Under the pieces are notes generated by a model, which was given only the letters and a program-made list of their open reading frames with translations, was not told the origin of the DNA and did not search any database. A program made the translations under genes and the position numbers. From assembly GCF_057098645.1 (NCBI RefSeq), contig NZ_CM169472.1: DNA of 64,000 bases; one strand, written 5' to 3'. Each line of letters opens with the position of its first letter. The stretch's first letter is position 1. Of the stretch, positions 45,601 to 50,419 are shown one piece after another.

Positions 45601-45631
45601 GCGGGATGCGGTGCGCCACACCGCATCCGGC
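45601..45631. repeat. REP-like palindrome / terminator between convergent uvrD and the DUF62 gene
   Basis: gcgggatgcggtgcgccacaccgcatccggc. Confidence 0.6.
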
Positions 45632-45640
45632 ATCAGCACC

Positions 45641-46543
45641 TTACTTATCACATTTCTTCACATCAATATTCCAGTCAGCACCAGACGCAACCTGATGTTT
45701 CTGCGCGAAATTATCCATATTCAGCGCCACGGAAACATTCAATAAGCTGTTCAGATACACCATCGGCTGTCCTTCCGGCACATCGCCGAAGCTGGCGACA
45801 TACGGCATTTTCCCTTCGTATTTTTTCTCGGAACCTTCGGAAATGGTCACACATAACGTATCGTTGAGTTTGATTCCTGCCTGATTCAGCAACTCGTCGC
45901 TGATATTGCTCCAGACGTTACCGTACTGAATATCGAGAATCGGGATATTGCCCTTCACTTCACCTTTTGTCGCTTTCGCTTTCTGATAAGGCAGTTCGAC
46001 AACTTTTGCCGGAAGCTCTGGCCCCACCTGTTCGAACGTGATCGCTCCGGAAGCCAGGCGTGCACCGGTGTAGGCATATACATCGCGACCGTGGAAGGTA
46101 TATGACTTTTCGGAACCTTTCAGGCGGTTGGTTTTTTCATCGATTTGCCGGACGCTCTCAATACCCAGCGATTCCGCCACCAAAGTGAGCGTACCGTTAT
46201 CTGGTGAAACGAAGTATTGACCGTTTTTGGTTTTCAGCACTACCGATTTACGGTCTGTACCAACACCAGGATCGACCACACTGACAAATACCGAACCTTG
46301 CGGCCAGTAACTGGCGGTCTGATACAGGCGGTAAGCGCCTTCCCAGATGTTATACGGTGGAATTTCGTGTGTTAAATCAAATATTTTAAGATTATGGTCA
46401 ACACCGAATGCGACCCCTTTCATCGCCGAGACGGCACCATCTTTCAGGCTAAAATCAGTTTGTAAAATCAAAGCGTTATCCGCATAAGCGGATGATGATC
46501 CCAGACACGTTAATAAAAATAACGTTGCGAGCGTTTTTTTCAT
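45641..46543 (-). CDS. SAM hydroxide adenosyltransferase-family (DUF62, chlorinase/fluorinase-like fold) protein with a predicted N-terminal signal peptide
   Basis: 300-aa ORF; N-terminus MKKTLATLFLLTCLGSSSAYA; DUF62 hallmark blocks TDF, DLTHEIP, VVDPGVGT, PDNG. Confidence 0.7.
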   Translation of the reverse strand: MKKTLATLFLLTCLGSSSAYADNALILQTDFSLKDGAVSAMKGVAFGVDHNLKIFDLTHEIPPYNIWEGAYRLYQTASYWPQGSVFVSVVDPGVGTDRKSVVLKTKNGQYFVSPDNGTLTLVAESLGIESVRQIDEKTNRLKGSEKSYTFHGRDVYAYTGARLASGAITFEQVGPELPAKVVELPYQKAKATKGEVKGNIPILDIQYGNVWSNISDELLNQAGIKLNDTLCVTISEGSEKKYEGKMPYVASFGDVPEGQPMVYLNSLLNVSVALNMDNFAQKHQVASGADWNIDVKKCDK

Positions 46544-46625
46544 TTTTGTTTCCCTTCATTTATCTGATGATTTTCCAGCTGTGTAGCCAGCCCCAGTTTG
46601 TCTGGCCTCCTCGAGTGTACAATGC

Positions 46626-47390
46626 TTAACCTTTCCGCTCGACGGAAATCATGGTGACAAAAGGATAGCGTTGCCACGGGATTGCCCCGCCTTTCATATA
46701 CATATGTGAAATCGTGCCATCAAGATAAAGCAGCTGCTCAACGTTCAGTTTCGCTTTGGCATAACAGGCAAAATCATAAAAATTTGTCGCCTGCTGGCTC
46801 AACAAAAACACGGCATTCCCATGTTTATTAATCCCAACACCGTTACGAATTTTACGTGAGGCGACGTTGGGATGAATACGCGGATTAATTACACTGTTTT
46901 CCATCAACATTGGCCCTGACTGCACCGCAAACTGAATCTCTTTACTGGTTTTGAAGGCATCCAGACGAACGATGCCGACTTTATCTCCCGCGACATAAAA
47001 CACGCCGCCAGGACGGATAAAGAAATTCCCTTCACCTGAAGCGAGATTTAACGCCACCTTCTGCTGACCGTTTTCGATGTACAAACCGAGCGGCGCATAG
47101 CTTTCATCATAGATGCCGCCGTTCATCGCCATCTGCACCTGACCCTGACTATTCATATCCGCCAGCAGAGCATGTAAAGTTCCCCACGCTTCGCCATTGG
47201 CTTTTTGCCAGTACATTTTCACCCGCTCTGTTTGAGGATTAACGGTATACGCCTGTACGGTCAGCGTCGGATCTGAGAGTGCGCAATCATCAGCGGCAAC
47301 AGCAAACAAGGGAAGTAAGGTGAGGGTGAGAAAAATCCGTTTGAGATTCAAGGTGATCATTCCTTTACCAATGAGTAGCCGATGCGCCAT
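46626..47390 (-). CDS. yigE: DUF2233-family exported protein
   Basis: 254-aa ORF with signal peptide (LKRIFLTLTLLPLFAVAA), upstream of corA. Confidence 0.8.
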   Translation of the reverse strand: MAHRLLIGKGMITLNLKRIFLTLTLLPLFAVAADDCALSDPTLTVQAYTVNPQTERVKMYWQKANGEAWGTLHALLADMNSQGQVQMAMNGGIYDESYAPLGLYIENGQQKVALNLASGEGNFFIRPGGVFYVAGDKVGIVRLDAFKTSKEIQFAVQSGPMLMENSVINPRIHPNVASRKIRNGVGINKHGNAVFLLSQQATNFYDFACYAKAKLNVEQLLYLDGTISHMYMKGGAIPWQRYPFVTMISVERKG

Positions 47391-48751: not shown

Positions 48752-49243
48752 CTAAAAATTGTCTTTTTTAAAGTCATGCGGATTGAAAACTCGCTCTATT
48801 TTATTTTCTTGTGTTAATTGATACTCAGTAAAATCGTTAATACCAATATGAGTGTTACGATAAGGGTATTCATTAATAACCATTAAGTAATTTTTCACGA
48901 TGCAATTATCATTGCTCTTAATTGTCGGGAAACAGTAGAGATCTTCATACGGCCCTTCGATATATTTTTTATAGTCAGTGAAGCCATTACCGATATCAAT
49001 GACATACCAGATATGCCAACTACCTTCTGGTAGGGGATGTTGATTTTTAATTTCATTCTGATGCTTCAGATACCAATTTATTTTATCGCTGTCAGTCCAT
49101 GGCAGATGATCAACGACCAGAAAGACTGAATTGCCAGCATCAGAGTATGTATACAAAATCTGTACAGGACGCAATGTCCATAAATTATAGATACAGCATA
49201 GAAGAAATAAACATAATATAATTTTCTGGCGTTTGCTTTTCAT
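48752..49243 (-). CDS. hypothetical membrane-anchored protein (N-terminal TM helix, extracytoplasmic domain); candidate partner of the upstream gene
   Basis: 163-aa ORF MKSKRQKIILCLFLLCCIYNLWTL...; very AT-rich codon usage; starts 27 bp after the upstream gene's stop. Confidence 0.6.
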   Translation of the reverse strand: MKSKRQKIILCLFLLCCIYNLWTLRPVQILYTYSDAGNSVFLVVDHLPWTDSDKINWYLKHQNEIKNQHPLPEGSWHIWYVIDIGNGFTDYKKYIEGPYEDLYCFPTIKSNDNCIVKNYLMVINEYPYRNTHIGINDFTEYQLTQENKIERVFNPHDFKKDNF

Positions 49244-49270
49244 AGATAATTTTCGATTCTTTCGATAGTG

Positions 49271-50084
49271 TTAAAATTGGTGAAAAAAGGTTTGAAAGCA
49301 AAGCCTTTATGCCGTTGTAAAAAGAACCATATGCGAAAAAATCTATATTTGCTGTAAGTCTTGTTTTTGATATCAGTTACATCAAGACCGAAGTGGTCCT
49401 GTGCTACAAAATGAATTGTCGCACTCCACCCTATAGCGTATTTTTGAAAGCTTAAAAGAGATATTTTTTGAGCTGAAATATCATGAACACTGATTCCTAA
49501 GCCATTAAAACTGTCCTCGAAGTCATTAAATTTATTTAGTCTTGATGAAAGTAATTTGGTTTTAATGCTTTGCAGGATAAGAGGTTGGTATCCTGTCGAG
49601 GGAGTTGAATTAATGCCATTTTCGATACATTCTTTGATTATTCGTATTGGACTATTATAACCATATTTATTTTTTCATGAAAAGATAAATTTAATTGTTG
49701 GCTATGAAAATTGCTGCCATTTCCATATCTAAAATGTTCAATCAGATCTTCGATAAGTGTTTTATATTGTCCAAAAAAGGAAAAAATTTTTGCTAGTTCT
49801 TTCATTTCTGCAAATAAAATATCAGTGCATTCACGTTGTGATATTTTTGTTCCGGAACTTGAGGCACTAAAAGCAACATTAATAGAACCTGGGCCAGGGA
49901 AATGGTATTTAATAAGTCTGTAAGGATCAACTTTTGCTGAGATATCGCTTAGGCCGAGTGAGAGAAAATCTTGTTCTACCATATCACCATATTGCATATC
50001 ATCAGCAGAATAATCATCAAATAAACTAATAGTTTCGAAAAGTGTACAGGGAATATTAATTGATGGAAGTAATGTGTTATTCAT
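49271..50084 (-). pseudogene. hypothetical protein of about 270 aa interrupted by a -1 frameshift at an A6 run (148-aa N-terminal ORF plus about 125 in-frame codons lacking any start codon)
   Basis: ORF 49638-50084 ends ...SFHEKINMVIIVQYE*; the next frame stays open from the overlap catgAAAAAAtaaatatgg down to the stop at 49271 and contains no ATG/GTG/TTG. Confidence 0.6.
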
Positions 50085-50209
50085 TTACATTTTCCTTGGT
50101 TATATTTAAGCTCAATATCAATTTGAGAACAAATGCTAGGGTAAAAAAAATTTAAAAAAGAAGTACACTTCACATTTTTATTACATTCCGAAGGGAATCT
50201 CGTTATTGA

Positions 50210-50413
50210 TTGGTTTTGCCCATTGTTAATAACAATATGTTGAATTTACCGATTAGGAAACTTTTTCCTACGCGGATTGCCTCCAGCTATGGGATGAACT
50301 TTGAGTTTATGCCAGAACTGAAGTGGAGTTTCGGCTACCCTGGCGCGATTATCTTTATGATCCTCGCGGGCCTGGCACCGCATCTGTACTTTAAGCGTAA
50401 GAACTGGCTGTAA
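50210..50413 (+). pseudogene. displaced corA 3' fragment (last ~46 codons, [11 protein letters not shown] end); not an independent gene
   Basis: 67-aa ORF whose C-terminal 45 residues equal the CorA C-terminus with one Y to H change; no corA N-terminal region upstream. Confidence 0.8.
50277..50413 (+). repeat. direct repeat copy 2 of the corA 3' terminus
   Basis: offset of exactly 1703 bp from copy 1. Confidence 0.85.
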
Positions 50414-50419
50414 CTATAC

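Follow-up and report, generated by a model that had tools for sequence, protein, structure and literature searches.

The stretch of DNA analysed here, hereafter the window, comprises 64,000 nucleotides of contig NZ_CM169472.1 (assembly GCF_057098645.1) and matches E. coli O145 strain RM9872 at 100% identity. Between uvrD and yigE it carries, at 45641..46543 on the minus strand, a complete coding sequence for a member of the DUF62 family, WP_000751615.1, whose 300 amino acids and TAA form one uninterrupted reading frame according to the list of open reading frames (ORFs), the sequence, PGAP and Pfam; the ATG start lies at 46541-46543 and the TAA stop at 45641-43. PGAP annotates the same coordinates and start in RM9872, under the product name 'SAM hydrolase/SAM-dependent halogenase family protein' (SAM, S-adenosylmethionine). 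The features described below lie on the minus strand as well unless stated otherwise. As set out in the following, the product is very likely an exported DUF62 enzyme of the hydrolase type; it appears to belong to a large exported branch of the family, and it has a nearly identical counterpart in Helicobacter pylori.

Family membership, active site and predicted export of the DUF62 protein

The original prediction had assigned the protein to the DUF62 family from four hallmark motifs, all of which are present (TDF at residues 29-31, DLTHEIP at 56-62, VVDPGVGT at 89-96 and PDNG at 114-117), and the profile search that it proposed matched both DUF62 domains. The SAM_HAT_N domain (PF01887; 3.5e-53, 179.7 bits against a cut-off of 26.3) spans residues 26-174 (46022..46468) and profile positions 2-145 of 145, and the SAM_HAT_C domain (PF20257; 1.3e-18, 67.5 bits against a cut-off of 25.5) spans residues 198-291 (45671..45952). 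Sequence comparison matched sixteen solved structures, with the Thermotoga maritima protein 2ZBU at the top (3.9e-44). The AlphaFold2 model of the mature protein, computed as a monomer from a 98-sequence alignment, reached a mean pLDDT of 95.4 and a pTM of 0.90 and has the two-domain DUF62 fold, namely an alpha/beta N-terminal domain followed by a beta-sheet C-terminal domain; its top Foldseek matches were 2zbu, the chlorinase SalL and PH0463 (1wu8), with TM values of 0.82-0.92. As such, the assignment to DUF62 is strong on the evidence of Pfam, solved structures and Foldseek alike. In E. coli, Shigella and H. pylori alike, the protein is often entered in databases as 'acetolactate synthase', which looks like a propagated misannotation since Pfam detects no acetolactate synthase domain.

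What separates DUF62 hydrolases from the fluorinase and the chlorinase is a water-activating Asp-Arg-His triad, D68/R75/H127 in PH0463 of Pyrococcus horikoshii (PMC4859513, PMC10491745). These residues align one for one with D91 (codon at 46271..46273), R98 (46250..46252) and H151 (46091..46093) of the present protein, all within SAM_HAT_N, and in the exported clade of homologues described below D91 and R98 are conserved in 82/82 members and H151 in 77/82. The five remaining members, exported homologues from Synergistota / Dethiosulfovibrio (loci L043, L048, L053, L054 and L069), have Phe in place of His151 while keeping the Asp and the Arg, and may use a different nucleophile or substrate. 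The residues with which the fluorinase FlA binds SAM, D16, D21, D210, F213 and N215 (PMC12080486; PMC4859513), correspond to D30 and D35 of SAM_HAT_N and to D204, Y207 and N209 of SAM_HAT_C. Among the residues checked, D30, D204, G208 and N209 are invariant in the exported clade (82/82 for the latter three). The family motifs PxNGL and IDxxFGN are present as P114-D-N-G-T-L in the N-terminal domain, with P114, N116 and G117 invariant or nearly so in the exported clade, and as L203-D-I-Q-Y-G-N209 in the C-terminal domain.

Since the Asp-Arg-His triad is present, the protein is of the hydrolase rather than the halogenase type, and because its scores fall far below the cut-offs of the NCBIfam equivalogs for (R)-SAM hydrolases (132.7 against 350 for NF058624 and 114.2 against 470 for NF053629), it is an orthologue of no characterised enzyme. 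PH0463 (PDB 1WU8, 2WR8) shares the two-domain fold (TM 0.82-0.89), the aligned triad and the motifs PxNG(L) and (I/L)DxxΦGN, where Φ is aromatic, but is a cytoplasmic archaeal protein of ~31% identity that has neither a leader nor the cysteine pair described below. The T. maritima protein (PDB 2ZBU, 2ZBV; TM 0.87-0.92), the best solved relative, also has the triad; unlike the window protein it starts directly at the first strand and is hence cytoplasmic, and it is itself uncharacterised. The (R)-SAM-specific hydrolases, which include StDUF62 of Salinispora tropica, MJ1651 and the SAMH enzymes of Sulfolobus and Haloferax, are members of the same family with the same triad, and their conversion of SAM to adenosine and methionine is the template for the mechanism proposed below; they differ in the job proposed for them, clearance of the inactive SAM epimer in the cytoplasm, and in the equivalog models, which the window protein misses.

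What sets the protein apart from these enzymes is its N-terminus. Residues 1-21 (MKKTLATLFLLTCLGSSSAYA; 46481..46543) form a predicted Sec / signal peptidase I signal peptide with predicted cleavage after A21, which would leave a mature enzyme of residues 22-300 (45644..46480). Read from the sequence, the leader consists of an MKK n-region, the h-region TLATLFLLTCLG and the c-region SSSAYA, followed by DN, and Ala occupies both the -3 and the -1 position of the predicted cleavage site AYA↓D. Because the Pfam match opens at residue 26, at profile position 2, residues 1-25 are an addition to the DUF62 domain. A Tat signal was ruled out, the n-region being MKK with no RR and a motif resembling S/T-R-R-x-F-L-K being lacking.

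The leader is not confined to E. coli. Scanning one genome per species recovered about 80 relatives at 55-97% identity from at least eight phyla, the phyla and groups being Proteobacteria, Bacteroidota, Verrucomicrobiota, Synergistota, Tissierellia, Fusobacteriota, Planctomycetota and Thermotogota. Leaders were called by a home-made criterion, a 9-residue Kyte-Doolittle hydropathy of at least 2.0 together with an uncharged run of at least 12, and by this criterion a hydrophobic leader directly precedes the first strand in 79/82 of the nearest homologues, usually ending in AXA-like triplets such as AAA↓NE, AFA↓NE or AYA↓DN; of the other three, one ORF is truncated, one was trimmed wrongly and one is borderline. 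When the 150 nearest representatives of 50%-identity clusters were sorted, 66 (of 118 classifiable) proved signal-bearing and 45 have short cytoplasmic-type N-termini, the rest being fragments or unclear. Between E. coli and H. pylori the leader has a dN/dS of 0.48 against 0.035 for the mature part, and such fast divergence is the pattern expected of a signal peptide that needs hydrophobicity alone.

The Sec signal of the original prediction is therefore borne out by the n/h/c layout, the AYA↓D site and the leaders of the homologues, and export of the protein to the periplasm, a strong prediction, is very probably what occurs. That an exported member of a SAM-cleaving family is unusual, as had also been claimed, holds against the characterised cytoplasmic members but not against the near relatives, which are mostly signal-bearing; the signal-bearing DUF62 proteins thus appear as a large exported branch of the family rather than an oddity of one protein. 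The mature part has a further feature that would suit a periplasmic location: Cys231 (45851..45853) and Cys298 (45650..45652) are both present in 36 of the 82 homologues and both absent in 46, and neither is ever found singly. The 36 homologues with the pair are the proteobacterial clade and one Desulfobacterales genome, and the two residues probably form a disulfide in the periplasm.

Distribution in E. coli and the Helicobacter pylori counterpart HP0709

The gene is found in 2413 of 5426 complete E. coli genomes (~44%), as a single chromosomal copy that always lies between uvrD and yigE, and at the same site K-12 MG1655 has a REP-type sequence of ~130 bp in its place. This count and the K-12 comparison confirm the earlier suspicion that the gene is accessory and missing from K-12 at this locus. 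Because a cryptic-clade Escherichia genome has the same uvrD-gene-yigE order, presence is probably ancestral in the genus and absence a loss. The window allele is a minority form, with only 28 of the 2413 genomes at least 99% identical and most at 95-97%. It differs from the major E. coli/Shigella allele by 12 residues, five of them within residues 124-138, where the major allele agrees with H. pylori; this patch could be a recombination tract or a site of local divergence.

The best matches outside Escherichia are those of H. pylori and H. acinonychis, with 88-90% amino acid identity over all 300 residues. The H. pylori gene is HP0709 (jhp0648, UniProt O25413; the copy compared is from CP079344.1, locus L003, 6001-6903), which is of equal length and has the same kind of signal peptide, the cysteine pair and the triad. 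Nucleotide identity between the E. coli and H. pylori genes is 82.6%, falling to 62% at third codon positions, with a dS of ~0.9-1.2 and the dN/dS of the mature part given above. DNA homology begins 26 nt upstream of the ATG and ends 6 nt past the stop, and the flanks are not common to both. GC content is intermediate in both hosts, at 47.1% for the E. coli gene against 51.4% for the window and at 42.9% for the H. pylori gene against 38% for its locus. The next relatives reach at most 77% identity, namely Aeromonas at 73-77%, and those at 66-75% comprise Neisseriales and Burkholderiales genomes from metagenomes, Haemophilus paracuniculus, Edwardsiella piscicida, Thorsellia and Bibersteinia. 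In the neighbour-joining tree Escherichia and Helicobacter form a clade with 100% bootstrap that is nested among gamma- and beta-proteobacteria, and Campylobacterota other than Helicobacter were absent from the one-genome-per-species matches.

Since homology stops at the edges of the gene, dS is ~1 and dN/dS is 0.035, these comparisons indicate an old inter-phylum transfer, its homology confined to the gene, followed by strong purifying selection in both the E. coli and the H. pylori lineage. The simplest reading would be a transfer from an Escherichia-like donor to the ancestor of H. pylori and H. acinonychis, its direction being taken from the distance tree and the sampling. The search for a mobile vehicle covered the plasmid database and the flanks, phage genomes not being searched, and no true plasmid copy was found among the plasmid-database matches. 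The 'plasmid' matches of E. coli and Aeromonas caviae (4.9 Mb) and of two Listeria records (0.6-2.9 Mb) are presumably chromosomal DNA because they are far too large for plasmids, and the plasmid-sized records contain only cytoplasmic-type Enterococcus faecium genes of ~48% identity.

In contrast to the accessory E. coli gene, HP0709 appears to be near-universal in H. pylori/H. acinonychis, one 90%-identity cluster holding 2579 member sequences, and it stands in another genome context, with uvrA-hopE-rsmH-HP0708 on one side and homA/homB on the other. The protein is included in an H. pylori vesicle proteome list (PMC8756444), is a seroreactive antigen in patients (PMC11394471) and carries a gastric-cancer-risk SNP in a genome-wide association study (GWAS), whose authors described the gene as poorly annotated and with conflicting names (PMC6090961). 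We found no functional study of HP0709 in the literature, only such proteome, serology and GWAS lists. A prophage integration hotspot of H. pylori is also reported to have the HP0709/homA region as its right-hand flank (PMC11321410), which may bear on variation at this locus.

Genomic context and fusions

The description of the gene as lying next to uvrD is correct as to adjacency, but the two genes are convergent and their adjacency is incidental; the DUF62 gene follows yigE in the same orientation. Where uvrD and the DUF62 gene converge, their stop codons are separated by a REP-like palindrome, GCGGGATGCGGTGCGCCACACCGCATCCGGC (45601..45631, no strand assigned), which may act as a bidirectional terminator. 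On the other side, a Shine-Dalgarno-like AAGGGA (46551..46556) lies 7 nt 5' of the ATG, within the stretch of DNA homologous to H. pylori. The co-oriented upstream neighbour yigE (46626..47390), which encodes an exported protein of the phosphodiester glycosidase family (PF09992, 2.6e-17), is separated from the DUF62 gene by 82 bp, and our scan of this gap found neither promoter-like nor terminator-like sites.

Clustering of all ORFs within 4 kb of the exported DUF62 genes at ~80 loci revealed synteny only within genera, chiefly in Aeromonas, and none across lineages. At two fusobacterial loci (Sebaldella / Fusobacteriales) a signal-bearing ORF adjoins the exported DUF62 gene (L051, 6993-7979; L056, 2156-3157). 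In L051 this ORF lies directly downstream and encodes a signal-bearing class-II cAMP phosphodiesterase (PF02112, 1.9e-51), and an ORF that looks similar to it takes the same position in L056. The pairing of a class-II phosphodiesterase with DUF62 suggests scavenging of extracellular adenosine compounds. Some exported DUF62 proteins carry C-terminal fusions to Y_phosphatase3, an alpha/beta hydrolase, an M15 D-Ala-D-Ala dipeptidase or Emfourin (L077, 5971-7887, and L080 from Fervidobacterium; P0161, P0208 and P0242), and the M15, alpha/beta hydrolase and Y_phosphatase3 domains are of kinds often found outside the cytoplasm, which lends weak support to an extracytoplasmic location. By eye, a phosphopentomutase-like (deoB-like) ORF and glycogen-synthesis genes lie nearby in three related Neisseriales / Burkholderiales metagenome-assembled genomes (L025, L027 and L038).

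We found no paper on exported DUF62 proteins in the searchable literature, although a remark in key DUF62 papers outside it is possible. As such, the exported branch, its breadth and the near-identity of the E. coli and H. pylori proteins are new in the searchable literature, while the family and its chemistry were already known. Farther along the window, positions 48752-50417, downstream of corA, form a second accessory insertion. In place of the yigF of K-12 they carry a DUF943-family gene, a YPO3983-family gene and a partial corA pseudogene, and the duplicated corA fragment lies at the edge of the insertion.

Proposed function and alternative explanations

We know of no SAM pool in the periplasm and of no means by which E. 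coli could import SAM, so that the substrate of a periplasmic SAM-cleaving enzyme would have to come from outside the cell and its sensible purpose would be scavenging. Here we propose that the protein is exported through Sec, cleaved after A21 by signal peptidase I and released as a soluble periplasmic enzyme, which would fold there, probably with a C231-C298 disulfide, and probably assemble into the homotrimer that is typical of the DUF62 family, in which the active sites lie where protomers meet. In the active site, Asp30 would hold the ribose, Asp35 and Asp204 the methionine amine and Tyr207 and Asn209 the adenine, and water activated by the Asp91-Arg98-His151 triad would attack C5' in an SN2 displacement. 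The substrate would be SAM, or a closely related adenosyl-sulfonium compound, for instance decarboxylated SAM or the (R)-sulfonium epimer, that has reached the periplasm from outside the cell. Ordinary transporters for nucleosides and for methionine would then import the resulting adenosine and L-methionine, and the role of the enzyme would be nutrient scavenging rather than cytoplasmic cofactor repair; the (R)-SAM repair role of the cytoplasmic relatives would be inapplicable to an exported protein.

The analysis demonstrated the reading frame with its domains and active-site residues, the fold, the conserved leader, the accessory status and a transfer to or from H. pylori. Export, disulfide, substrate and physiological role are inferred here, and they differ in how far they can be trusted. 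That the protein is an exported hydrolase-type enzyme is the firmest element, as stated at the outset; that such an enzyme also acts in SAM scavenging has, as a combined statement, about an even chance of being right, and the specific role in scavenging SAM itself we put forward somewhat more hesitantly. Adenosine and methionine both have dedicated uptake systems, and H. pylori requires exogenous methionine. Adenosine moreover supports efficient growth of this organism through a NupC homologue (PMC3368855), and with its adenosine growth and its methionine need scavenging fits H. pylori especially well.

Among known systems, the Vibrio fischeri class-II cAMP phosphodiesterase CpdP and the 5'-nucleotidase UshA are periplasmic nucleotide-scavenging enzymes, and they resemble the proposed scheme by analogy only, in that an exported hydrolase turns an impermeant adenosine compound into importable adenosine; their folds and chemistry are unrelated to DUF62. 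The phage T3-type SAMase likewise destroys SAM, acting inside the cell in anti-restriction. It has an unrelated fold and is a lyase that yields methylthioadenosine and homoserine lactone (PMC7877911).

Several observations weigh against SAM scavenging in the periplasm. No conserved neighbour ties the clade to nucleoside or methionine uptake at the ~80 loci, and no MetJ, PurR, CRP, CytR, DeoR or Fur-like sites were found in the gap between yigE and the DUF62 gene or upstream of yigE, even with permissive mismatches. Likewise, neither a SAM nor a purine riboswitch turned up in an Rfam scan of 14 loci of Tissierellia, Fusobacteriota, Synergistota and Thermotogota, which returned an rRNA fragment only. 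The call of export rests on our home-made criterion of hydropathy and AXA-like ends, the vesicle list is weak evidence of localisation because ribosomal proteins are listed as well, and the co-occurrence of the two cysteines amounts to few independent events because the pair arose within one clade. Free extracellular SAM is scarce and unstable, and given this scarcity the true substrate may differ. Finally, those DUF62 enzymes that have been characterised work slowly, and what they do physiologically is itself disputed (PMC12120602).

The serious alternative, which we regard as possible though doubtful, accepts export and assigns the enzyme another purpose: it might act on another 5'-substituted adenosine or on a SAM-like toxin of competitors, or it might serve to make extracellular adenosine as a signal, for instance to dampen host inflammation. 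In favour of such a role, no genomic link to salvage genes or their regulators was found, and it has been questioned in the literature whether DUF62 enzymes truly serve to hydrolyse SAM (PMC12120602). The clade is distinct in sequence from the characterised enzymes, as the equivalog scores show, its chemistry varies to judge from the His-to-Phe change in the five Synergistota members, and the H. pylori gene is a gastric-cancer GWAS hit (PMC6090961). However, the residues for adenosine and the methionine amine are conserved (D30, D204, G208 and N209 among those checked), an SN2 reaction at C5' depends on a good leaving group, a sulfonium for example, and most members of the clade come from soil or water bacteria, so that a role directed at a host could not be ancestral.

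A second alternative concerns the form of export. Cys13 lies within the leader, some H. pylori alleles have the canonical lipobox L-S-A-C at this point, and several distant homologues have leaders that contain Cys, so the enzyme might carry a lipoprotein signal, or an uncleaved anchor, and be tethered to the membrane facing the periplasm. The window allele, however, reads L-L-T-C, which is outside [LVI][ASTVI][GAS]C, Cys occupies that column in only 9/82 homologues and is absent in H. acinonychis and H. pylori SA213A, and a good AXA site lies downstream of Cys13. Tethering is thus improbable in general, although it is possible for some alleles.

Hardly more can be said for a two-gene periplasmic module with yigE, which we consider very improbable. 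The co-orientation of the genes, the 82-bp gap with no terminator-like or promoter-like site and the signal peptides on both products would fit such a module, but K-12 and ~55% of E. coli genomes have yigE and no DUF62 gene, HP0709 between HP0708 and homA/homB has no such neighbour, a neighbour of the NAGPA family, to which yigE is akin, is absent from ~60 other lineages, and the homology of the E. coli and H. pylori DNA ends 26 nt upstream of the ATG.

A mis-called start, with a cytoplasmic DUF62 enzyme such as an (R)-SAM repair hydrolase as the real product, was named at the outset as what would overturn the idea of export and is effectively excluded. Initiation at the TTG of codon 25 would, in principle, yield a cytoplasmic protein, M-ILQTDF..., with an N-terminus like those of cytoplasmic homologues. 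Yet this codon has no good Shine-Dalgarno sequence before it, whereas AAGGGA precedes the ATG; the frame and hydrophobicity of the leader are kept in 79/82 relatives, across phyla and in H. pylori; a start at M41, the next Met, would cost the protein its first strand and the invariant D30; and the PGAP start is identical.

Least tenable, and effectively excluded as well, is a SAM-dependent halogenase like the chlorinase SalL or the fluorinase FlA, since these share the fold and the SAM-binding residues (with ~30% sequence similarity to SalL, and the name 'adenosyl-chloride synthase' in some HP0709 database entries) but are cytoplasmic enzymes from biosynthetic gene clusters that lack the triad and exclude water (PMC10491745), whereas the window protein has the triad, has Asp at the SalL Y70 position (the halogenase sites being FlA T80/S158 and SalL Y70/G131) and scores 82.9 against a cut-off of 400 with the fluorinase model TIGR04507.

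Returning to the reading as an exported SAM hydrolase, its main implication is for the DUF62 family. For DUF62 hydrolases a single role has been proposed, that of ridding the cytoplasm of the inactive (R)-SAM epimer, and this role is disputed (PMC10491745, PMC12120602). A large exported branch cannot clear cytoplasmic (R)-SAM and would thus point to a second, extracytoplasmic role. In its widest and most tentative form, which may well prove wrong, our hypothesis is that signal-bearing DUF62 proteins are a widespread and hitherto unrecognised class of extracytoplasmic hydrolases of SAM (adenosyl-sulfonium), through which bacteria unable to import SAM use that of their environment or host as a source of adenosine and methionine combined, that an Escherichia-like enterobacterium passed the gene to the H. 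pylori lineage, in which it became fixed as HP0709, and that E. coli keeps it as a polymorphic accessory gene which K-12 has lost. On this hypothesis, its loss from K-12 would explain why the gene was never studied.

Because ~44% of E. coli carry the gene and K-12 does not, isogenic growth tests on SAM are straightforward, and the exported DUF62 gene may thus serve as a simple genetic handle and a cheap-to-test clue to a disputed family, rather than as a new system. The protein identity of ~90% between a gamma-proteobacterium and a member of the Campylobacterota, confined to the gene, makes this an unusually well-bounded case of old inter-phylum transfer. The counterpart HP0709 wants explaining in its own right, given its apparent near-universality in H. 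pylori, its immunogenicity in patients, its listing in vesicle proteomes and its gastric-cancer-risk SNP.

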